Origin: a virus
Lineage: Duplodnaviria > Heunggongvirae > Uroviricota > Caudoviricetes
DNA length: 24,673 nucleotides
Direction: 5' to 3' (one strand)
IMG/VR virus record: IMGVR_UViG_2585427758_000016
The notes under the pieces were generated by a model, which worked only from the letters and a program-made list of their open reading frames with translations, was not told the DNA's origin and ran no database searches. Numbering within the stretch: the first letter of the stretch is position 1; each line of letters begins with the position of its first letter. Position numbers and translations under genes: made by a program. Positions 3,895-23,034 of the stretch are shown one piece after another.

Positions 3895-4165
3895 GATGTT
3901 ACCGTAGTATGTGAGTATCCATCGAATAGACACCAAGCAAAAAAGCTCCCGAAGGAGCCTTCATTTTCACTTTTTTAAATCCAACGACAGACGGCTGGCA
4001 TTTAAGTATTGTGAAATATTATCAAATGTAATCATCATTGATTTACAAAAGATACATTTTGCCCCGAAAGGATTCATGTCAGAAACATCAAAAGATGATG
4101 TTCTATACTGGGAACCATGACAACACGGGCATCTAAAGTGAATATGGTTTGTAATATTGTCTACC

Positions 4166-4378
4166 TCAAAGCGCCACTACATGAACAGCGGCAGGACCTT
4201 TAGGTCCGTTCTCAATACCAAATTCAACTTCCTGATTCTCAGTTAATGTTTTGAAATCGTTGCTCTGAATTGCTGAGAAATGGACAAACACATCTTTGCT
4301 GCCATCTTTCGGCGTGATGAAACCAAAACCTTTTTCAGGGTTAAACCATTTCACTAAACCAGTCATTTTGTTAGACAT
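4166..4378 (-). CDS. cspI: Cold-shock protein, CspI-like
   Basis: 70 aa [38 protein letters not shown]...; canonical cold-shock domain RNP1 (KGFGFI) and RNP2 (VFVHF) motifs; long AT-rich 5' leader upstream (4379-4700). Confidence 0.9.
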
Positions 4379-4739
4379 AATTATTACCTTTTGAAGAAAT
4401 TAGCCCTTGGGCAGAATGGTCCGAAAAAAATATCAGAGAGAAAAACCAACAAGGAAATCTCAAGAGGTACAAATAATAAAATTATAACAATGACTGCTTC
4501 AGATAAATTTGTAACAAACCAGAACACCATTAACGCATGATTAACCACCCATAGCAAGGATTACTTTTGTAAAGAAAAACACAGCAATGAAAGAATAGCT
4601 TTATTTATTAATAAAACGTGTCATTCTGATTAAGACCTTTTATCTTACCCTTAAGATTTCAGGAATTTTGGCTCATGGAAGAGTCCTTTTTATTTAAATT
4701 TTACATTCCGCGATGTAAATGTTCCGATTTAATATTACC

Positions 4740-6767: not shown

Positions 6768-7048
6768 GAGATTGTGGTGCTTTTTGTGGGAGTCATCCAC
6801 TTACGCACTTTGTTTTGCGATGCCAGCAGTTAGCTTCTGCTGTGAAACTATTCATGCAGCAAACCTGCACTTCACCACAATGGTTAGCATACTTTTCCTG
6901 ATTAAGATTTTGCCAAATATGCTGGCCATTGTTTCATGTATTGGACCTCCTTACTTTTTATTAAAGAGATCCAATATTCACTACTCTGTCCGTATCTCTA
7001 CTCAGGCATCAGCCTTCTTCGTTATCGTATACAGACGAGCGATGAATT

Positions 7049-7264
7049 TTAATCAGTAATGATGACATTTACTGCTGCAGGACCTTTAGCACCACTCTCT
7101 ATAGAGAAGGTAACCTTTTGACCTTCAAATAAGGTTCGATAATTATCATTCTGAATCGCAGAAAAATGCACAAACACATCTTTACTACCATCAACAGGAG
7201 AAATAAAGCCGAAACCTTTATCAGCGTTAAACCATTTTACTAAACCAGTCATTTTATTTGACAT
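7049..7264 (-). CDS. cspB: Cold-shock protein, CspB-like
   Basis: 71 aa [64 protein letters not shown]...; cold-shock domain with long 5' leader. Confidence 0.9.
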
Positions 7265-7574
7265 TCTACATTCCTTAACTTGAGCCTTTCGGCATAAATG
7301 GTTTGCATAACAGAAACGACTTCGTACTTAATTGGAGAGACTCAAAGAAGGAATAAGTGAATAACACCTGAAATGAGAACTGCTTTAGTAAACTACTTCG
7401 TATATCGTCTGTTCTTCAAACCGACGCAGTCATTAACTCATAGTTGAACATATGAAGCAATGTTTATTTTAGACATCCAGCCACCTTCAATCCTATCAAA
7501 AAAGTAGTTTTCTCCAGGAACGTGTGTATGGTGCACCAGGTTATCAGTATTAAGGAGTTTTTCTGTCCCCTAAA

Positions 7575-10982: not shown

Positions 10983-11053
10983 AGCCTGCTTCTCCTGTCA
11001 ACGCAAAGCAGAAGTGTCACCTTCGGTGCGAAACAGAGATGTCATGCTTTGGT

Positions 11054-11341
11054 TCAGAGAATGCGTTTGACCGCCTCGCTATATACTTCCGAGCGTTCTC
11101 TTTTCCCAACAGAAATCACGAAAACGACAACTTTCTCGTCTATAACCTGGTATACAAGGCGATAGCCTGAAGACCGGAGCTTAATCTTGTAACAATCAGG
11201 CATACCACGGAGCTTGTTTGCTTCAATCCGGGGTGACTCAAGTACTTCAACCAGCTTCTTTTTCAACTGTTCACGTACCGTCGAGCCCAGCTTTCGCCAT
11301 TCCTTTAGTGCCCGCTCGTCAAAATCCAGAAAATACGCCAT
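11054..11341 (-). CDS. relE: mRNA interferase toxin RelE
   Basis: 95 aa MAYFLDFDERALKEWRKLGSTVREQLKKKLVEVLESPRIEANKLRGMPDCYKIKLRSSGYRLVYQVIDEKVVVFVISVGKRERSEVY... matches K-12 RelE from memory. Confidence 0.95.
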   Translation of the reverse strand: MAYFLDFDERALKEWRKLGSTVREQLKKKLVEVLESPRIEANKLRGMPDCYKIKLRSSGYRLVYQVIDEKVVVFVISVGKRERSEVYSEAVKRIL

Positions 11342-11584: not shown

Positions 11585-11640
11585 TACACCTCTTGTAATT
11601 ACAAATGTCATTACAAGTATCGCACTACAACATGCTTAGG
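11585..11640 (-). promoter_or_regulatory. relBE promoter and operator (relO)
   Basis: Immediately upstream of the relB start, read on the minus strand: cttgtaatgacatttgtaattacaagaggtgtaagacATG, containing the palindromic TTGTAATTACAA and repeated TGTAAT/ATTACA hexads. Confidence 0.7.
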
Positions 11641-12533: not shown

Positions 12534-14407
12534 GTTAACATTACAAGATATAAGTAATGGACGCACTCCCAATTAGTCTATTTAAATCGCCACGAGTTTA
12601 ACTGACAACCCATGATCAATTATGAATTGCAACTATTTCTGTAGTCACTTTTGTGGGGACAGTCCACAAAACTGCCAACTTCCGCTTCTTGCTCTTAGCG
12701 GACATTAGCATAGGCTATTTACCATAACGTCTCATTACGCGCACCGCCCAGACTGACTCAGCGCGTTTCTGGCATATCCCCGGTAAAACAAGTAACAAAC
12801 CACCCGAAAATGAACACCAGAAACGCGACTTAAGAATCTACCCTATGAATGGATATGCACTCAACCGAATCGATCTTGGTTTCAATCTTTTTTATCGGGA
12901 TCAGGCTTCTTTTTAGGTAACTTCGGGGGCTTAACTTGCTGATGACTTTGCGTTCGGCGCGTAAGCCAGGGATGGTCAGCTTTAGGTTTAACATAGTATT
13001 TTGAGCGTAAATCAATACGGGCATTATCCACTCGTTCATGGACACTCTTTTCATCATCCAGTGGTATAGGCTCCGGGCCATCAACATACTTTTCCCAGCC
13101 CAGCGCTTTCCCGTCATACAGAACGTTAATTTCACCGTCAAAGTTCTCGCATACAGTAACAACCGAATGCCTAAGTCGATATCCCCGGCTCTCACTGCGT
13201 ACCTGAAACGCACTGCTTTTGTACTGGAAAGTGAGATTTTTAGACAGAACGCGCTTCGCCTGTAGGCTGAAGATATAACCCAGTTCCTCTTCAGAATGGT
13301 GCACATCAAGATGAGCATTATCAGTAGTACGAGGCGACGTAGCGAACCGGTTGTTATAGGCTTCAATAAAGGTCGGCAACCATGCATTTGCTGTTTCAAT
13401 ATCACTGATATTCTGAAGCCGCATTTCTTTGACCAGCCTGTCCTGTAGTGTCTGATTGGCGCGCTCTACCCGCCCTTTTGCCTGCGGGCTGTTGGCATGG
13501 ATTGGCTCGATGCCCAGTGTCTTTATCGCACGAGTGAACTGGGTCAGCTCACCTTCCCGCTCTGGGTTATTTACCCTGAATATACTGTGTCTATCAGAGT
13601 AGAGAGCGAGCGGTACGCCATGATCATTAAGGTAACCCCGGAGGGTTTCCATGTAAGCCCGGGTTGTTTCAGCAGGCACAAAACGCAACGCCATCAACGC
13701 ACTGGTGGCATCATCAATGAAAACGATCAGTGTACATCTGGGGCCTCGATTTTCAAACCAGTCATGAGGTGAGCCATCAATCTGGATCAGTTCACCGTAA
13801 GATGGTCGTCGCATGCGGCGTTGATATATACGGGCAATTTTACGACGGCGTTCACGCCATAACCCCTCTTCTATCATCCACTTTCTGAGAGTTTCAACGG
13901 ATAAAGATAAACCGTGTATCTCGCGCAATTTTTCGCACGCAAACGTAGGTCCAAAATCAGCGTAACGGCCTTTGAGGAGTGAAATTACTGTTGCTCTGAA
14001 TTCAGTAGAAAAGGAATTATTAGGACGCTTTCCACGTCGGTGGGAAACCAGACCAGAAGGCCCTTCATTTCTATACCGTTGCACCAGACGTTTAACCTGC
14101 CGAATAGAAATGCCAATGCGTGCCGCAGCTTGTTCCTGAGTAATATGTCGATTAATTGACTCCTGAATAATCTGAAGTCGGTGGAGTTCCTTATGACTCA
14201 TCGTAACAGTCTCTTTGATCATGAAAAATCCCCCAGAGAATTGTCTGGGGACATTTTAGAATGGTTCAAAGGGGACATTACAGCTTGGTGTTAACAATAG
14301 CCTGCTTCTCCGTGCCTTTCGGCACGTAAGAGGCTAACCTACATGTGTCTAGCATGAAATTGGCCTCAGATTAATGTTAAGCGTCTTGCAGGACGCGTAA
14401 TGTTAAC
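12534..14407 (-). mobile_element. Putative insertion sequence carrying one DDE transposase gene (IS481-family-like); boundaries tentative
   Basis: Single transposase ORF flanked by non-coding DNA; only candidate terminal inverted repeat I could find by eye is gttaacattac (12534-12544) versus gtaatgttaac (14397-14407). No direct repeats confirmed. Confidence 0.3.
12882..14222 (-). CDS. DDE transposase with N-terminal HTH and rve integrase-core domain
   Basis: 446 aa; N-terminal HTH region (TQEQAAARIGISIRQVKRLVQRY), catalytic-triad candidates in QIDGS, YSDRHSIF and GRVERANQTLQDRL with a basic residue seven positions after the Glu; Lys/Pro-rich C-terminal tail. Confidence 0.8.
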   Translation of the reverse strand: MIKETVTMSHKELHRLQIIQESINRHITQEQAAARIGISIRQVKRLVQRYRNEGPSGLVSHRRGKRPNNSFSTEFRATVISLLKGRYADFGPTFACEKLREIHGLSLSVETLRKWMIEEGLWRERRRKIARIYQRRMRRPSYGELIQIDGSPHDWFENRGPRCTLIVFIDDATSALMALRFVPAETTRAYMETLRGYLNDHGVPLALYSDRHSIFRVNNPEREGELTQFTRAIKTLGIEPIHANSPQAKGRVERANQTLQDRLVKEMRLQNISDIETANAWLPTFIEAYNNRFATSPRTTDNAHLDVHHSEEELGYIFSLQAKRVLSKNLTFQYKSSAFQVRSESRGYRLRHSVVTVCENFDGEINVLYDGKALGWEKYVDGPEPIPLDDEKSVHERVDNARIDLRSKYYVKPKADHPWLTRRTQSHQQVKPPKLPKKKPDPDKKD

Positions 14408-15887
14408 TGGGGCTTTTCTCTATCTGCCGTTGGTGTCCATGCCCGAGGCAGATAGCCTCAAGCACCCGCAGTCATTCTACTTAACTAAGATTTCCCCGCA
14501 AACCGTTTTTGTCCAGCACAGTAAATATCCAACTAAACCAATGGAGTTCGCTGTATTTACCGCCAGTATTCAATGCACATGACCGCCATGAACACCCCTA
14601 AAAAAAGGGCATTTATATATCCAAATATTAATATCAAAACATCAACTTTTTCCATATACCTTGCTGTGAAGATGATGGGCATACATGATGCGAACAACCA
14701 GAACGCAACAAACAAAAACTGCAATGCGTTTTTCATTATTCCTCCTACAATCAATGTGCAATTACATTTAAACACACCTCAATTTGGCCGGACATATAAA
14801 TATCTAAACCAGAAAAAATCACTTACATAGCGTTACAAACTCTTTAGTCTAAAGGTTCATCGTAAAACATTCCCCATACTTATCAGTCCGTTCCGCGCCA
14901 GGTAGCTCATTGCCTTATCTGGCAACCTGTAATCAGGTTTCCGCTTTTTCAGTTGGCTGGTCGTTTAACCGACATAGTTAATCCATTAATCTAGTTGCCG
15001 GATGTTGGTGGATTTTCGCGTTTTAGTTGTTCATAAAAGTGCACAGCTTTAACCAGTTCTTCTGATGTAACCGGGACTGGTGAGGCAGTGAATAAGGCCT
15101 GAATTTGATAGTTCGGCCTGTCGTTACAATCCTCTTTTTTCGGTACATATTTCCAGTCACCAGACCACTACTTCCCCTGAAAGTCCGTAACGCTTTTTTC
15201 ACGTAGCGATATCGCCATGCCACTGGTTTTGCTTGCCCCGCCGTTTCATGCCCTTCCTGATAATTAATCTCGCTCATTCATCGCCCCACTCATCACAATA
15301 TGCTTCGACCGGAGTTTTTCCCGCTTCATAGTCATCACGCTAGGATTCGACATCAGCAGCACTTCCACCGCGTAATTCACCATAGTCCATTAATAGTTCA
15401 TCCCGCTCTTCAAAACTGATGTTATATTTAGCTGAACAAAAATCAGCCACTTTGTTCTTCCTCATCGTCTTTTATTTCGTGGTATGAGTAATTGCAGTAG
15501 TTAAAGAAAATTTCTTATGCTCCGTCATGAATTTCATCAGGTGTTGCGTCATCGTCCACTTCGAATACATCCTCAAAATCTCCACCAGCTATTTCCGTTT
15601 CAATAATAATTTTGAACTTTCGCATTTCACTACCGCCCTTTCGGGCGGCCTCCTGATGTTCTGAGGGTGCAGAAATCCATCCGGTTAAGGATTAAGTTTT
15701 ATTTACAGAACTGAATTTAATTATTCAGATATACGTATCTGTAACCTTACGAATCTACTCACTGGATGCCTCTTTCATAAAAATAATCCAGTGGGTTTTA
15801 TCGTTTTTTCCCTGTTCGTTGACAGATAACAGGCTTTCTATCTGTCAGTGCCAGAATCTGGCTTACCGGTATTTGCGTTTCATTCCA

Positions 15888-16244
15888 TTAAAAAATCAGA
15901 ACGCCGTGCGGCCTCAACACCCGAAAAGCTTCTTTAAATCTCTGTCGCAAATCATCACGCCAGGCATCTTTATTCAGCCGTCCATATTTCTTTCCCATCC
16001 AGGCGTTATCACCAACACGCTCAAGATGCGGAGGGTCTAATACAACCATCGAAAAAGATGCGTCTGCAAATGATAATGCACGAAAATCTGCGATAATGTC
16101 AGGGCTGATAATCAAGCGTCTCCCATTGCGTAATGTGTATCCTTCTTTTCTGATATCGCTGAATATCGCCCGTTTGTCAGACTTATCGAACCAGAACATG
16201 CGGCTGCCACAGCACATATCAAGAATGGTTGCCGGTGCACTCAC
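15888..16244 (-). CDS. DNA methyltransferase N-terminal region (AdoMet-binding DMCCGS motif and DPPH motif IV); probably truncated
   Basis: 118 aa ORF with a DxxxGxG-like SAM motif and DPPH; ends about 45 residues after motif IV with no continuation in any minus frame, so a C-terminal domain appears missing. Confidence 0.5.
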   Translation of the reverse strand: MSAPATILDMCCGSRMFWFDKSDKRAIFSDIRKEGYTLRNGRRLIISPDIIADFRALSFADASFSMVVLDPPHLERVGDNAWMGKKYGRLNKDAWRDDLRQRFKEAFRVLRPHGVLIF

Positions 16245-16663
16245 TGCGCCACGTCCTGAAAATTACCCTGATAGAAAGCCAGTATGCGCTGCATAACTTC
16301 GCTCTTCCGGCACTCGCGACAGATTATGTTTAGGCGACTGTCGTAGCGACGTATTTCTCCGTCAGGTGATGACCAGATAAGGTCCGGATCAACCACAGCA
16401 GGTTTCTTCACCTTTGCCCTCGAGAGTTTTTTGCGGGCGTTTTGCCAGTCCTTACGCGCCTGTTCAGAGGGGAATAACCCGTAGCCGGAGTTGTATACAT
16501 CGCCACTGGCTACCAGCTCTCTGGCAAGAACGCTCATCAGATATCTAGTCGCACCTGTTTTAGCTTCCAGTTGCCGTAACGTCTCACGGCCGCTCTGGCG
16601 CACGAGTTCCACCACCTGCCATTTAATTTTTTCCCGCTCTTCTTGTGTAAAAACTTTTGCCAC
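16241..16663 (-). CDS. Hypothetical protein (140 aa), early-operon gene downstream of the replication gene
   Basis: Protein-like composition; translationally coupled to the methyltransferase fragment (stop/start overlap); no family recognised. Confidence 0.5.
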   Translation of the reverse strand: MAKVFTQEEREKIKWQVVELVRQSGRETLRQLEAKTGATRYLMSVLARELVASGDVYNSGYGLFPSEQARKDWQNARKKLSRAKVKKPAVVDPDLIWSSPDGEIRRYDSRLNIICRECRKSEVMQRILAFYQGNFQDVAQ

Positions 16664-16703
16664 AAGTCCCCCTTAAAATTACCTCATGACCTGAAATCAA
16701 CAC

Positions 16704-17723
16704 TTATCCTCTGAAACCAGGCGGAATTTCTGTATCCGGTTCAGAAATATGATTAACACAACGCTGTACAGGTGAACGTCCCAGGCGGATGACCAGTTCG
16801 TCCCATTTTTCGCGGAGCTTTGACGGGCTCATGATGTTTTTTACCCAGAATGGATCTCGCTGAACCCGACCAAACATTTCGCAAATTTGTCTGTGGCTTC
16901 TGCCATCCAGCATCCGCATTGTGCGCACGTCATTGGCCCAGGCAGTCCAGTTAGGCTCTTTTGGTCGCATGATCTCGCCATCATCACTGGCTGCCTGTTC
17001 GTAGAGACCCACGATCCGCCCCCAGATCCACTGCGCACACGCCAAATCCTCCCTGCTACCCCACTGGCGTTTTTTCGCACTAAACACAACCGCGTCGGAG
17101 TTCCGGGTTAAAGAATCCTGTTCAGTCGTCTGCGGGTCCGGTTGCGAAGCTTCCGGACGAAAAGTGTTTTTATTCTCTGTAGTAATCTCTGTTGTATTCT
17201 CTGTAAGATCATCAGGCCATTTTGACCCGATGACATTGGGTCGTTTTGAACCAATGGAGCGTTTCATTTTGACCTCTTCCATCGTGTCATTTTGACCTGA
17301 TGGAGCGGCGCATTTTGAACCGATGGATTCGCTCAATTTGCCACCATCTAAAAGCTCGCTCCCATAGTTGATCGTGTAGAAATTGGTCATATCGCGCTTT
17401 GATTTATTGAGCTTTTCACAACGCAAAAGCCCCAGCGTTTTCAGACTTGCAAACGCGCGCTTTAACGTTGACTCTGACCAGAATGGGAACTGTTCAAGCC
17501 ATTGTTCCGTTGTGTTATAAATCCAGCGAACACCATCACATTCCATGCCGGAGTTGGTATCTCTCAACCAGTAGTGCAGTTGTTGCAAAACAATGGCTTC
17601 GTTTAAGCCAATTTTCATTGCCAGCTGCGTGTTTATAACCAGTGGGCGTTCAGCAAAAAGAAGGCTCATAATTCCATCCAGCTTTTTGTTGGTATTGCTG
17701 TCGATACGCAAGCTTGAAAGCAA
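16704..17723 (-). CDS. Phage replication initiation protein (lambda O-like, iterons inside the gene)
   Basis: 339 aa; N-terminal winged-helix-like region (INTQLAMKIGLNEAIVLQQLHYWL), a central repetitive linker encoded by DNA iterons, and a conserved-looking C-terminal domain; follows the cro-like gene in the rightward early operon. Start may be the internal Met at 17669. Confidence 0.65.
   Translation of the reverse strand: MLSSLRIDSNTNKKLDGIMSLLFAERPLVINTQLAMKIGLNEAIVLQQLHYWLRDTNSGMECDGVRWIYNTTEQWLEQFPFWSESTLKRAFASLKTLGLLRCEKLNKSKRDMTNFYTINYGSELLDGGKLSESIGSKCAAPSGQNDTMEEVKMKRSIGSKRPNVIGSKWPDDLTENTTEITTENKNTFRPEASQPDPQTTEQDSLTRNSDAVVFSAKKRQWGSREDLACAQWIWGRIVGLYEQAASDDGEIMRPKEPNWTAWANDVRTMRMLDGRSHRQICEMFGRVQRDPFWVKNIMSPSKLREKWDELVIRLGRSPVQRCVNHISEPDTEIPPGFRG
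17160..17350. repeat. Putative replication origin: five to six ~20-bp iterons (core ATTTTGA(A/C)C...GATGG) plus an adjacent triplicated ATTCTCTGT motif
   Basis: Direct repeats cattttgacccgatg / ttttgaaccaatgg / cattttgacctc / cattttgacctgatgg / cattttgaaccgatgg / caatttgccacc at 17217-17348, preceded by tattctctgta-gtaatctctgt-tgtattctctgta at 17171-17205. Confidence 0.55.
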
Positions 17724-18171
17724 TTGCTTTTTCTATAAGTTCGTCAGTTTCACGATCCACTACGGCAGGATCAGCAAAAAGCAGTCCGGACTCCACCACA
17801 TCGCCATATTCTTTGTTTAACCCGGCGATCATGCACGTGATGCTTTTTCCGTCAGTAATTTCACGATACAACCTGAAATCACTAATCCGGATAGCCTCCA
17901 TAATCGCAGGCACTAGCGCCGTGAACTTTTCACGCTTATCCCTGGTGTCGATAGCCTTCCAGCGTTCGAATATCTTCACTCGATTAACACCAAGCGCTCG
18001 CTGATCAACCGCGCCACCTTCATCTGTGACACGCTGAACATCGATGTTCGGGCGCTCTTTCAAAGCCCAGAATGCTTCAGTGATTAATATCGTCGCCTGC
18101 TCCTGTGTCATTCCTGGTCGACATATCCAGGCATCCAGAGCCTCACGAGCCTGTTCAGGAGTGATTTTCAT
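17650..18171 (-). CDS. Hypothetical early protein (173 aa) between the cro-like gene and the replication gene
   Basis: Protein-like ORF overlapping dicC by 17 nt at its start and the O-like ORF at its end; occupies the cII-equivalent position; no family recognised. Confidence 0.5.
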   Translation of the reverse strand: MKITPEQAREALDAWICRPGMTQEQATILITEAFWALKERPNIDVQRVTDEGGAVDQRALGVNRVKIFERWKAIDTRDKREKFTALVPAIMEAIRISDFRLYREITDGKSITCMIAGLNKEYGDVVESGLLFADPAVVDRETDELIEKAIAFKLAYRQQYQQKAGWNYEPSFC

Positions 18172-18396: not shown

Positions 18397-18413
18397 GTTA
18401 GACTTTTCTAACA
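18397..18413. promoter_or_regulatory. Operator palindrome in the dicC-dicA divergent promoter region (TGTTAGA-n4-TCTAACA)
   Basis: tgttagacttttctaaca; 7-bp inverted arms with a 4-bp spacer, centred in the 77-bp intergenic region. Confidence 0.6.
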
Positions 18414-18462
18414 TTATTGTGCGCGGGATACCTAAGTCAAGAAAAATTAGAATTACCTAACT

Positions 18463-19912: not shown

Positions 19913-19970
19913 TTTCTGGTGACGTTTGGCGGTATCAGTTTTACTCCGTGACTGCTCTGCCGCCCTTTTT
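19913..19970 (+). ncRNA. dicF: DicF small RNA (ftsZ-targeting antisense sRNA) with its intrinsic terminator
   Basis: tttctggtgacgtttggcggtatcagttttactccgtgactgctctgccgcccttttt matches DicF as I recall it, including the ggcgg...ccgcc terminator stem and U-tail; lies between ydfC and dicB. Confidence 0.8.
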
Positions 19971-20139: not shown

Positions 20140-20328
20140 ATGAAAACGTTATTACCAAACGTTAATACGTCTGAAGGTTGTTTTGAAATTGGTGTCACTA
20201 TCAGTAACCCAGTATTTACTGAAGATGCCATTAACAAGAGAAAACAAGAACGGGAGCTATTAAATAAAATATGCATTGTTTCAATGCTGGCTCGTTTACG
20301 TCTGATGCCAAAAGGATGTGCACAATGA
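20140..20328 (+). CDS. dicB: Cell-division inhibitor DicB
   Basis: 62 aa from the internal Met: MKTLLPNVNTSEGCFEIGVTISNPVFTEDAINKRKQERELLNKICIVSMLARLRLMPKGCAQ. Confidence 0.9.
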   Translation: MKTLLPNVNTSEGCFEIGVTISNPVFTEDAINKRKQERELLNKICIVSMLARLRLMPKGCAQ

Positions 20329-20609: not shown

Positions 20610-20867
20610 ATGAGTAAAGTCTTTATTTGCGCCGCTATTCCTGACGAACTGGCAACAAGGGAAGAAGGCGCTGTGGCTGTAGCCACAGCCATTGAAGCTG
20701 GCGACGAACGCCGTGCTCGAGCAAAATTTCACTGGCAGTTCCTGGAACATTATCCGGCTGCTCAGGACTGCGCTTATAAATTTATTGTCTGCGAGGATAA
20801 ACCTGGCATACCCCGCCCTGCCCTCGATTCATGGGATGCTGAATATGCAGGAAAACCGCTGGGATGA
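20610..20867 (+). CDS. Hypothetical protein (85 aa) upstream of the exonuclease
   Basis: ORF with an SD-like gaggt upstream; its 3' end overlaps the start region of the large exonuclease ORF in another frame. Confidence 0.45.
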   Translation: MSKVFICAAIPDELATREEGAVAVATAIEAGDERRARAKFHWQFLEHYPAAQDCAYKFIVCEDKPGIPRPALDSWDAEYAGKPLG

Positions 20868-23034
20868 GGAGTCTGCTTCTTTTGTCCCGGTTGAGACTGA
20901 ATCCGATCCGATGAACGTCACTTTTGACAAGCTGGCCCCTGAAGTACAGAACGCTGTCATGGTTAAGTTCGACACATGTGAAAACATCACCGTTGATATG
21001 GTTATTAGCGCACAGGAATTGTTGCAGGAAGACATGGCAACATTCGACGGACATATCGTTGAAGCGTTGATGAAAATGCCAGAAGTTAACGCCATGTATC
21101 CGGAGCTTAAGTTGCACGCCATTGGGTGGGTTAAGCATAAATGTATTCCTGGTGCTAAATGGCCCGAAATTCAGGCAGAGATGCGCATCTGGAAAAAACG
21201 TCGCGAAGGTGAACGCAAGGAAACCGGAAAATACACGTCTGTTGTTGATCTCGCCCGCGCCAGAACCAATCAACAGTACACTGAAAATTCAACAGGAAAA
21301 ATCAGCCCGGTCATTGCTGCCATTCATCGCGAATACAAGCAGACATGGAAAACACTGGATGACGAACTGGCCTACGCTCTCTGGCCTGGTGATGTGGATG
21401 CCGGAAACATTGACGGCAGCATCCATCGCTGGGCAAAAAAAGAAGTTATCGACAACGACCGCGAAGACTGGAAGCGTATCTCGGCATCAATGCGCAAACA
21501 GCCTGATGCCCTTCGCTACGACCGCCAGACTATTTTTGGCCTTGTCCGTGAGCGTCCGATCGACATTCACAAAGATCCCATAGCACTGAACAAATATATC
21601 TGCGAATACCTGACGACAAAGGGCGTGTTTGAGAATGAAGAAACAGACCTGGGCACTGTTGATGTTCCCCAGTCATCAGAAACACAAACTGATGCAGTGG
21701 AAACTGAGGTATCTGATATCCCAAAAAATGAAACCGCGCCGGAAGCTGAACCATCTGTAGAGCGTGAGGGGCCGTTCTATTTCCTCTTCGCAGATAAGGA
21801 CGGAGAAAAATACGGTCGCGCAAACAAACTTTCTGGTCTGGATAAGGCACTGGCTGCTGGCGCCACTGAAATCACAAAAGAAGAATATTTTGCCCGAAAA
21901 AATGGCACATACACGGGCTTACCGCAAAATGTAGATACCGCTGAAGATTCAGAACAACCAGAGCCGATAAAAGTTACCGCTGACGAAGTAAACAAAATTA
22001 TGCAGGCAGCCAATATCAGCCAGCCTGACGCCGATAAGTTGCTTGCTGCATCACGTGGTGAATTTGTTGAAGGGATTAGTGACCCGAATGATCCGAAATG
22101 GGTTAAGGGGATCCAGACCCGCGATTCTGTGAACCAGAACCAGCATGAATCGGAACGGAACTACCAAAAAGCGGAACAAAACAGCACAAATGCGTTACAA
22201 AACGAGCCAGAAACGAAACAGCCTGAACCAGTGGCGCAACTGGAAGTGGAAAAAGTCTGCACCGCCTGCGGTCAGACCGGCGGCGGCAACTGCCCTGATT
22301 GTGGCGCGGTGATGGGCGACGCAACATACCAGGAAACATTCGATGAAGAGTATCAGGTTGAAGTTCAGGAAGATGATCTGGAGGAAATGGAAGGCGCTGA
22401 ACATCCACACAAGGAGAACACTGGCGGCAATCAGCATCACAATAGCGATAATGAAACTGGCGAGACGGCAGATCACTCAATTAAGGTGAACGGTCATCAC
22501 GAAATCACATCCACCAGCAGGACGTGTGACCATCTAATGATCGACCTTGAAACCATGGGAAAAAATCCTGATGCCCCGATCATCTCAATAGGTGCAATAT
22601 TTTTCGATCTGGAAACTGCTGGCGGAGTCATTGATCGGGACACCATTAAATGGTGGCTTAAGCAATCACGCGAAGCGCAATCTGCCATTATGACCGATGA
22701 AATCCCGTTAGATGATGCACTGTTACAATTGCGGGAATTTATCGACGAAAACTCCGGTGAATTTTTTGTTCAGGTTTGGGGAAATGGAGCCAACTTCGAC
22801 AACACGATTTTGCGCCGTTCATACGAACGGCAGGGGATCCCCTGCCCGTGGCGTTACTACAACGATCGCGATGTACGCACAATCGTTGAGCTGGGGAAAG
22901 CCATAGACTTCGATGCCAGAACGGCTATTCCATTCGAAGGTGAGCGCCATAATGCACTTGATGACGCCCGTTACCAGGCAAAATACGTTTCAGTTATCTG
23001 GCAAAAACTGATCCCGAGTCAGGCTGATTCTTAA
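20836..23034 (+). CDS. Large prophage exonuclease: long N-terminal region, acidic linker with a CxxC...CxxC motif, and C-terminal DEDDh (DnaQ-like) 3'-5' exonuclease domain
   Basis: The ORF opens at 20692 but the first ~48 codons overlap the preceding gene and look non-native; likely start is MLNMQENRWDEE at 20836 or the Met at 20845. C-terminus shows Exo I (MIDLETMG), Exo II (WGNGANFDNTIL) and Exo III (HNALDDARYQAKY) motifs; occupies the exo/recE slot of the early-left operon. Confidence 0.8.
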   Translation: MLNMQENRWDEESASFVPVETESDPMNVTFDKLAPEVQNAVMVKFDTCENITVDMVISAQELLQEDMATFDGHIVEALMKMPEVNAMYPELKLHAIGWVKHKCIPGAKWPEIQAEMRIWKKRREGERKETGKYTSVVDLARARTNQQYTENSTGKISPVIAAIHREYKQTWKTLDDELAYALWPGDVDAGNIDGSIHRWAKKEVIDNDREDWKRISASMRKQPDALRYDRQTIFGLVRERPIDIHKDPIALNKYICEYLTTKGVFENEETDLGTVDVPQSSETQTDAVETEVSDIPKNETAPEAEPSVEREGPFYFLFADKDGEKYGRANKLSGLDKALAAGATEITKEEYFARKNGTYTGLPQNVDTAEDSEQPEPIKVTADEVNKIMQAANISQPDADKLLAASRGEFVEGISDPNDPKWVKGIQTRDSVNQNQHESERNYQKAEQNSTNALQNEPETKQPEPVAQLEVEKVCTACGQTGGGNCPDCGAVMGDATYQETFDEEYQVEVQEDDLEEMEGAEHPHKENTGGNQHHNSDNETGETADHSIKVNGHHEITSTSRTCDHLMIDLETMGKNPDAPIISIGAIFFDLETAGGVIDRDTIKWWLKQSREAQSAIMTDEIPLDDALLQLREFIDENSGEFFVQVWGNGANFDNTILRRSYERQGIPCPWRYYNDRDVRTIVELGKAIDFDARTAIPFEGERHNALDDARYQAKYVSVIWQKLIPSQADS

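Follow-up and report, generated by a model that had tools for sequence, protein, structure and literature searches.

The replication origins of lambdoid phages consist of iterons and an AT-rich tract that lie in the middle of the initiator gene O (PMC7466680). [quoted passage not shown] Here, we analyze a locus of this type in a 24,673-nt stretch of DNA (the window), available as the IMG/VR virus record IMGVR_UViG_2585427758_000016 (Caudoviricetes). A previous reading of the window, made from the letters alone (the sequence-only reading), placed an iteron-containing origin at 17160-17350, inside an O-like replication gene, and drew a parallel with lambda. The location of the origin inside the O-like gene is supported, because the layout is that published for the lambda and Stx phages, with mid-gene dyad-symmetric iterons at lambda-like spacing, a low-stability tract downstream and a C-terminal domain (C-domain) homologous to that of lambda O; the implied full O/P system is not supported, as there is no P gene and the N-terminal domain (N-domain) is not matched by the Pfam model of lambda O. 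The segment 17160-17348 is very probably the origin from which a lambdoid prophage of the Qin/mEp460 type replicates vegetatively, and it lies where the initiator gene of this prophage encodes the linker. The layout as such is textbook, and the comparison supports considering the element an uncharacterised addition to the lambda-type class of origins contained within the initiator gene.

The initiator gene is located on the minus strand (16704-17669) and, according to the list of open reading frames (ORFs) and their translations, encodes 321 aa from the ATG at 17669. The replication protein was previously described as 339 aa long; the gene is confirmed, but this length corresponds to the maximal ORF from the TTG at 17723, and the likely product comprises 321 aa, because RefSeq, three phage records and the N-termini of the homologs (MSLL...) all agree on the ATG start. 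The protein belongs to PHROG 391, “replication initiation O-like” (E 5.6e-91); the annotations given to it in phages PhiR42_1, HannyBb and mEp460 are protein O, O-like or “primosomal protein I”.

Between the parts of this gene that encode the N-domain and the C-domain, a repeat search identified six 23-bp dyad-symmetric copies (17210-17348) starting at 17210, 17234, 17257, 17280, 17303 and 17326, that is, at successive distances of 24, 23, 23, 23 and 23 bp. The coding-strand consensus, CATCRGGTCAAAATGnCCYGATG, forms imperfect 7-bp inverted arms around an A-tract, with the core TCAAAATG. Iteron 1 (17326-17348, coding strand GATGGTGGCAAATTGAGCGAATC) is the farthest from the 12-mers described below; it is degenerate and the most variable copy among the Escherichia coli alleles, with the 23-bp register kept. 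It is followed by iteron 2 (17303-17325, CATCGGTTCAAAATGCGCCGCTC), iteron 3 (17280-17302, CATCAGGTCAAAATGACACGATG; dyad arms CATCAGG/CACGATG), iteron 4 (17257-17279, GAAGAGGTCAAAATGAAACGCTC), iteron 5 (17234-17256, CATTGGTTCAAAACGACCCAATG) and iteron 6 (17210-17232, CATCGGGTCAAAATGGCCTGATG), which adjoins the 12-mers. Tandem Repeats Finder (TRF) reports a period of 23 with 3.7 copies and a score of 70, and a search for the core CATTTTGAMCNNATGG allowing one mismatch gives four occurrences in the window, all of them within 17218-17326. The autocorrelation of 17210-17348 at lag 23 is 0.56 vs a window-wide mean of 0.35 (standard deviation 0.032), a value that was reached by none of the 5000 codon shuffles. 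Loose iteron patterns (3 mismatches or 9-mers), when counted over the whole window, are not above the chance level and are uninformative, so the significance of the array rests on clustering and periodicity; no other comparable repeat array was found in the window. Accordingly, the “five to six direct repeats” of the sequence-only reading turn out to be six copies, one of them degenerate, with a period of 23 rather than about 20 bp; the repeats indeed lie within the region assigned to them, the iteron array itself running to 17348. The motifs reported for them are present, but were given as the complement of the coding strand, because the gene is on the minus strand. Elsewhere in the window, a second periodic signal (22071-22140, plus strand; autocorrelation 0.57 at lag 21) was dropped because no clear repeat is seen in the sequence; it lies inside a 780-aa exonuclease VIII-like ORF (20692-23034).

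On the promoter-distal (downstream) side, the iterons directly adjoin a tract of low stability that includes three tandem 12-mers, a candidate unwinding element (17171-17206; coding strand TTACAGAGAATAC, AACAGAGATTAC and TACAGAGAATA, encoding the peptide LTENTTEITTEN), and an A/T run (17160-17170, coding strand AAAACACTTTT) belonging to the stability minimum (17159-17210). Among the 40-mers of the gene, those starting at 17159-17171 are the least stable, with -44.3 kcal/mol vs a window mean of -53.5 kcal/mol (standard deviation 4.4). TRF recovers the 12-mers with a period of 12, 2.7 copies and a score of 50. The 12-mers are the triplicated motif that had been noticed next to the repeats (TATTCTCTGTAG / TAATCTCTGTTG / TATTCTCTGTAA), and the translations proposed for the repeats, SIGSK... 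and LTENTTEITTENKN, agree with the ORF translation. Beyond the A/T run, a short inverted repeat, GTCCGG-11 nt-CCGGAC (17136-17158), is placed like the palindrome to the right of the lambda AT-rich tract; it is weak and possibly due to chance, and related palindromes (GGTTGCnnnGCAACC) occur at the equivalent place in relatives. No DnaA box or promoter was found inside the 12-mer block. The DnaA box TTWTNCACA is absent from 16700-17700 and occurs twice in the whole window vs 2.8 occurrences expected by chance, and neither an Rfam RNA family nor a sigma-70-type promoter was detected in the origin. A Dam site, GATC, occupies 17207-17210, precisely where the last iteron meets the first 12-mer (GATCTTACAGAG); most enterobacterial homologs have this site, and homologs from Dam-less hosts do not.

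The region containing the repeats is translated, and the behavior of its codons separates selection on DNA from selection on protein. The iteron cores fall in reading frames 1, 0, 2, 1, 0 and 0 and are read as GKL, SKC, GQND, VKMK, SKR and SKW, respectively; as 23 is not a multiple of 3, the 23-bp period cannot be a period of the peptide. Silent sites were compared across 104 full-length ungapped homologs (90-100% identical; 56 E. coli alleles), anchored by blastn over the whole gene. Among the 56 alleles, 93 of the 205 third-codon positions are variable in the two structured domains; the corresponding figures are 8/46 for the iterons (Fisher p = 4e-4) and 1/17 for the 12-mers and A/T run (p = 1.4e-3). 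Silent sites in the origin are therefore 2.6- to 8-fold less variable than those in the flanking domains, which implies purifying selection on them in natural populations; the comparison directly shows the repeats to be DNA-level elements under such selection.

A further set of about 25 diverged homologs, drawn from phage records and one genome per species, covers Escherichia, Klebsiella, Citrobacter, Raoultella, Izhakiella, Pantoea, Xenorhabdus, Proteus, Providencia and an Aeromonadaceae metagenome-assembled genome (MAG). All of these genes (about 25) have their best periods at 23 and 46 within the 170 nt upstream of the 12-mers, with five or six copies that end a fixed few bases before CTTACAGAG. 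Homologs retaining the protein and lacking the nucleotide periodicity, which had been named as evidence that would speak against an origin, were not encountered in this set: the 23-bp periodicity persists below 40% protein identity. The sequence of the repeat changes by lineage, being GGTCAAAATGACC in Escherichia, Klebsiella and Xenorhabdus, GGGCAAATTGCCC or GGACAnnTTGTCC in Pantoea and GGGAAACCC in the O gene of a Stx phage, the product of which is only 20% identical. The similarity of the iteron consensus follows the identity of the N-domain (Spearman 0.73; Mantel 0/2000), decreasing to 0.39 below 50% N-domain identity. The 12-mer block serves as an internal control: it is 85-93% identical throughout and does not co-vary with the N-domain. 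Linkage explains a part of this pattern, which is nevertheless what an initiator with cognate sites should produce.

The constancy of the (ACAGAGAWTACW)n block extends well beyond these relatives. Its nucleotides are near-invariant in all homologs examined, irrespective of the iterons, N-domain or C-domain that accompany it. In a blastn search for distant phages with a 66-nt query, the block was found at 82-100% identity in initiator genes of Acinetobacter (21 records), Bacillus (14) and Staphylococcus (9) phages, and matches were also obtained in initiator genes of Klebsiella, Erwinia, Pseudomonas and Geobacillus phages; in each distant-phage match read, a 22-23-bp array lies just upstream. 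The exact 23-nt pattern of the block has at least 120 matches in the viral collection vs an estimate of about 0.01 by chance, and in 19 of the 21 non-redundant classes among the matches listed, the block is in frame at residues 137-222 of a 260-390-aa ORF. Inside the block, Glu is encoded by GAG 86 times and never by GAA, compared with 245 GAG and 351 GAA outside; for Thr, ACA/ACT are used 168 times and ACC/ACG twice inside, compared with 239 and 290 times outside. In a Selenomonadaceae MAG, the 12-mer units are spaced by 13 and 11 nt, and the middle one is in another frame, with CAGAGAAT kept. At least five kinds of C-domain (lambda-O-like, Phg_2220_C, DnaB_2, DnaT-like and others) are linked to N-domains through the block, and the corresponding motif TE[NIST]T[TS]E stands at the domain boundary in 49 of 125 long representatives of the N-domain family.

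These data indicate that the DNA of the block is evidently itself constrained. Our best guess is that the block functions as a sequence-specific unwinding or priming element, a role as a recombination junction being ranked weaker; candidate readers would be the winged-helix initiators, acting on the single-stranded form, or a universal host protein such as primase. A broader proposal can be put forward only tentatively: (ACAGAGAWTACW)n might be an undescribed sequence-specific origin element with a common reader, present in the initiator genes of thousands of phages of Proteobacteria and Firmicutes, and, in the subset of these phages that lack a helicase loader, a DnaT-mimicking tail of the initiator might plug the origin into the host primosome. 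Literature searches with the strings of the 12-mer, its peptide and PGFRG returned nothing relevant, which is not proof that the block is undescribed. Two of the records surveyed deserve a separate remark. IMGVR_UViG_3300017658_000175 contains, at approximately 11000-11240, four 23-bp iterons (CGACAAAATGACGG) and 12-mers, one spacing being 11 nt, without an intact initiator ORF around them; they represent either the remains of a gene or a copy of this origin type in non-coding DNA. The initiator gene of OR842880.1 (“Xanthomonas phage SU1”) has a G+C content of 32% and is very similar to that of Staphylococcus phage 37; the taxonomy line of this record is Rockefellervirus, and the stated Xanthomonas host looks inconsistent.

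The encoded initiator shows no Pfam family at E<=0.01, and Pfam and NCBIfam give nothing usable for it apart from the DnaT-like tail considered below. Its architecture was therefore approached with an AlphaFold2 (AF2) model and sequence comparison. The N-domain (residues 1-113; 17331-17669, minus strand), the presumed iteron binder, is modelled with an H-H-E-H-H-E-E topology (helix-helix-strand-helix-helix-wing) at a pLDDT, the local confidence score of the model, of 60-80. The best Foldseek matches in PDB are the N-domains of staphylococcal plasmid Rep proteins (5kbj, 4pql and 4pt7; E 0.08, prob 1.0, TM 0.55), and with modest confidence the domain can be regarded as a winged helix. Residues 110-202, exactly the part that is encoded by the origin, form a linker predicted to be disordered (pLDDT 25-30). 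The C-domain (residues 203-297; 16779-17063, minus strand) is helical in the model (pLDDT 62-84) and is a homolog of the lambda O C-domain: BLASTP aligns residues 147-294 with residues 135-270 of lambda O at 34% identity over 148 aa (E 5e-26), setting the peptide LTENTTEITTEN opposite the peptide encoded by the AT-rich tract of lambda. The C-terminal tail is again modelled as disordered. The N-domain family is very large, comprising 10,317 cluster representatives (50% identity) at E<=1e-3 and lacking a Pfam model, and some of its members carry two tandem copies of the N-domain in proteins of 400-880 aa.

The tail (QRCVNHISEPDTEIPPGFRG followed by the stop codon; 16704-16766, minus strand) is identical at 15 of 20 positions to residues 160-179 of E. 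coli DnaT, the last 20 residues of that protein, and DnaT is the sole match in a sequence search of PDB with the initiator. The match to the full-length DnaT family NF002770 of NCBIfam scores 16.3 bits vs a cut-off of 201 and involves only residues 302-321; the phage label “primosomal protein I” is due to this tail alone. Among about 45 initiators surveyed, 16 have an end of the form ..P.GFRG; all 16 come from Enterobacterales, and for none of them do the next genes include a Walker-A ORF; the neighbor of the two that were scanned belongs to PerC or to no family. Tail-less relatives often, not always, have a P-like, DnaC-like or DnaB-like gene next door. The rule that tail-less initiators are always accompanied by an adjacent loader gene was rejected, given that relatives from Xenorhabdus, Proteus and Providencia carry Dam or antirepressor genes at that place. 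Neither the 45 kb of HannyBb, an isolated phage with a 98.3%-identical module, nor the 18 kb around the module of PhiR42_1 contain an annotated helicase, loader or primase. In an Aeromonadaceae MAG (CAMFKP010000035.1), the C-terminal half of the initiator contains a whole C-domain of the DnaT type, resembling the part of DnaT that binds single-stranded DNA (E 2.4e-9 to PDB 6aep and 6e-8 to E. coli DnaT 87-155), and a lambda-P-like gene follows. This case suggests that DnaT and these initiators exchange domains. That the tail recruits the host primosome or DnaB-DnaC is a hypothesis only, because the DnaT literature searched does not establish a binding partner of the DnaT tail.

Taken together, these features suggest the following course of initiation. 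After derepression, transcription from a pR-like promoter would proceed through the cro-like, cII-like and O-like genes. Dimers of the winged-helix N-domain would then bind the five or six 23-bp iterons and form an O-some-like complex, a step for which anatomy, homology and covariation argue. The complex would strain and open the low-stability 12-mers and A/T run (17160-17206). Finally, and more speculatively, the initiator itself might bring in the host DnaB-DnaC via its lambda-O-like C-domain, possibly with the DnaT-like tail; this helicase would have to come via the initiator, because the phage encodes no P, DnaC or DnaB.

Several observations weigh against an origin at this site or against parts of the proposed scheme. 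No P gene is located immediately downstream of the initiator, the next gene being the Ren-like DUF977 gene, which affects the helicase recruitment step. The N-domain has no BLASTP match to lambda O and no match to PF04492 (Phage_rep_O) or any other Pfam family; its model was built from a shallow alignment and is of low confidence (mean pLDDT 53 overall), and the Foldseek matches, in which winged-helix regulators rank after the plasmid Rep proteins, are weak, all with E>=0.08. The covariation of the iterons with the N-domain is in part to be expected from physical linkage alone. Besides, the prophage that carries the window may be defective and its origin silent in the E. coli MB10 host, where prophage genes are frameshifted and an insertion sequence (IS) is present.

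Alternative explanations differ in what they take the repeats to be for. The linker-coding region is translated, predicted to be disordered and rich in recurring SIGSK / TENTTE peptides, so the repeats could be a by-product of a repetitive peptide linker, without a DNA function; for the iterons, this is refuted by the frame analysis (a 23-bp period with cores in all three frames), and the reduced variability of silent sites relative to the flanking domains, the exclusive use of GAG (86/86) inside the 12-mers as opposed to 245/351 (GAG/GAA) outside and the retention of the DNA core in the out-of-frame middle unit of the Selenomonadaceae MAG make the explanation hardly credible overall. The 12-mer block, in turn, might be kept mainly as homology at a module junction, where N-domain and iteron modules recombine with C-domain modules. 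Mosaic breakpoints do occur at the block (Klebsiella phages share only 17171-17612, and Stx phages only 17171-17210), which joins at least five C-domain kinds to many different N-domains. Yet phages of Firmicutes and Proteobacteria rarely encounter each other, and second-order selection for recombination is an improbable reason for their sharing about 36 nt at 82-100% identity; the block is the stability minimum as well, and its silent sites are frozen even within one E. coli lineage, so that we consider this account unlikely.

Iteron arrays have control functions in plasmids. For phages, cloned lambda origin fragments are reported to inhibit homologous phages (PMC3349717). The iterons could be regulatory sites bound by the initiator, for autorepression, handcuffing copy control or exclusion of related phages, the true origin lying elsewhere. 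However, the array immediately borders the gene's stability minimum, the arrangement matches the mapped origin of lambda unit by unit and the window offers no other comparable array; moreover, control and origin functions are not mutually exclusive, and a purely regulatory role seems quite improbable. Greater weight, though still well short of an even chance, should be given to the possibility that the element is an origin by descent and now an inactive relic in a defective prophage. The Qin prophage of E. coli K-12 is defective, and the MB10 locus contains frameshifted terminase and exonuclease genes, a methyltransferase pseudogene and an IS. On the other hand, the initiator retains an intact ORF, with 98-99.8% identity to its counterparts in isolated phages, silent sites are constrained across the population and 1734 of 5426 complete E. 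coli genomes carry the module; besides, the relic explanation concerns the activity in one host and not the identity of the element, which we continue to interpret as a lambda-type origin.

The window itself represents a Qin/mEp460-like lambdoid prophage of E. coli, as judged from gene content and Rfam matches. The segment 16600-17800 is 100% identical to the MB10 chromosome and 99.8%, 98.3% and 96.9% identical to phages PhiR42_1 (from ECOR13), HannyBb and mEp460_ev081, respectively; the genomes counted above contain at least 80% of it. The neighboring genes include dicC, a dicA-like gene, ydfA-D, dicB, relBE, hokD, ydfU, the Q antiterminator, rrrQ and an integrase beside rspB, and together with the matches to DicF RNA (19914-19965, plus strand) and sok antitoxin RNA (14296-14467, minus strand), both at Rfam gathering score, they identify the prophage as Qin-type. 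Two cspA thermoregulators (4139-4523 and 7002-7425, both on the minus strand) also reach the gathering score and agree with this assignment. On the minus strand, a pR-like promoter is followed by the cro/DicC-like gene, the cII/YdaT-like gene, the initiator, the Ren-like DUF977 gene and a decayed methyltransferase gene. The promoter (TTGACT-16-AATAAT; 18413-18440, minus strand), located upstream of the cro-like, cII-like and O-like genes, is the sole match of the consensus scan (10/12) and represents a pattern match only. The cII-like gene of the YdaT family (17650-18171, minus strand; PF06254; PHROG 163, CII-like) overlaps the initiator start by 20 nt, and the DUF977 gene (16241-16663, minus strand; PF06163; PHROG 142, Ren-like), directly after the initiator, is 26% identical to lambda Ren. 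TRF additionally reports short tandem repeats of 12 nt x 1.9 (TGTAATTACAAA) at 11594-11616 and of 13 nt x 1.9 (AAACGTTAATACC) at 20144-20168.

As an origin, the element is of an ordinary and well-understood kind, and its practical value lies in annotation: RefSeq labels the initiator a “hypothetical protein” in most of the 1734 carrier genomes, and none of the records examined carries an origin annotation. The parts that merit experiment are the conserved 12-mer block and the DnaT-like tail. A block of about 36 nt with frozen silent sites, common to phages of distant phyla, would provide a handle on origin opening or priming, a step that is still unclear even for lambda. A DnaT tail, or a whole DnaT C-domain in relatives, on loader-less initiators suggests a route into the host restart primosome, and DnaT-tailed initiators might serve as a natural probe of how DnaT recruits DnaB-DnaC.

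A search of the literature on mEp460, PhiR42 and HannyBb found no replication study. DnaT shares with the initiator its last 20 residues (15/20 identical), located at the extreme C-terminus in both proteins, whereas the rest of the initiator is not DnaT. Initiators of the RepA_N plasmids of staphylococci and enterococci (4PQL, 4PT7, 5KBJ) are the best structural match to the predicted N-domain. Members of the RepA_N family have a winged-helix N-domain, which recognizes repeats located centrally in the rep gene itself, and a C-domain that is host-specific and brings in the replication proteins of the host. These initiators differ in showing no sequence similarity and no Pfam RepA_N match, the fold match being weak (E 0.08) and based on a low-confidence model, and in belonging to plasmids of Firmicutes and not to phages. 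The 13-mers of E. coli oriC and of the RK2 and F unwinding elements resemble the 12-mers in that three tandem units of 12-13 bp form the least stable DNA beside an initiator-binding array, and plasmid Rep proteins read one strand of such tandem units in a sequence-specific manner. In contrast to these 13-mers, the units described here are unrelated in sequence, have no DnaA box nearby and are translated.

The closest parallel is the lambda origin (J02459), in which iterons with the core TCAAAACG occupy 39034-39118 and start at 39034, 39054, 39078 and 39101. In the present locus, the N-domain has no Phage_rep_O match, the iterons follow a strict 23-bp period and have a different arm sequence, and three sequence-conserved 12-mers take the place of the plain AT-rich tract of lambda; the gene order O, P, ren of lambda is replaced by an initiator with a DnaT-like tail, directly followed by a ren-like gene. 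What is shared is the order of elements along the coding strand, as the comparison with lambda ori bears out: the N-domain, the iterons, the low-stability tract, the short palindrome and the C-domain. With lambda and the six-iteron origins of the Stx phages 933W and P27, the locus has in common four to six dyad-symmetric iterons with the A-tract core TCAAAAYG, spaced by 20-24 bp, and with lambda also the homologous C-domain (34% identity) and rightward transcription through the origin from a pR-type promoter, which in the present case is a predicted one.

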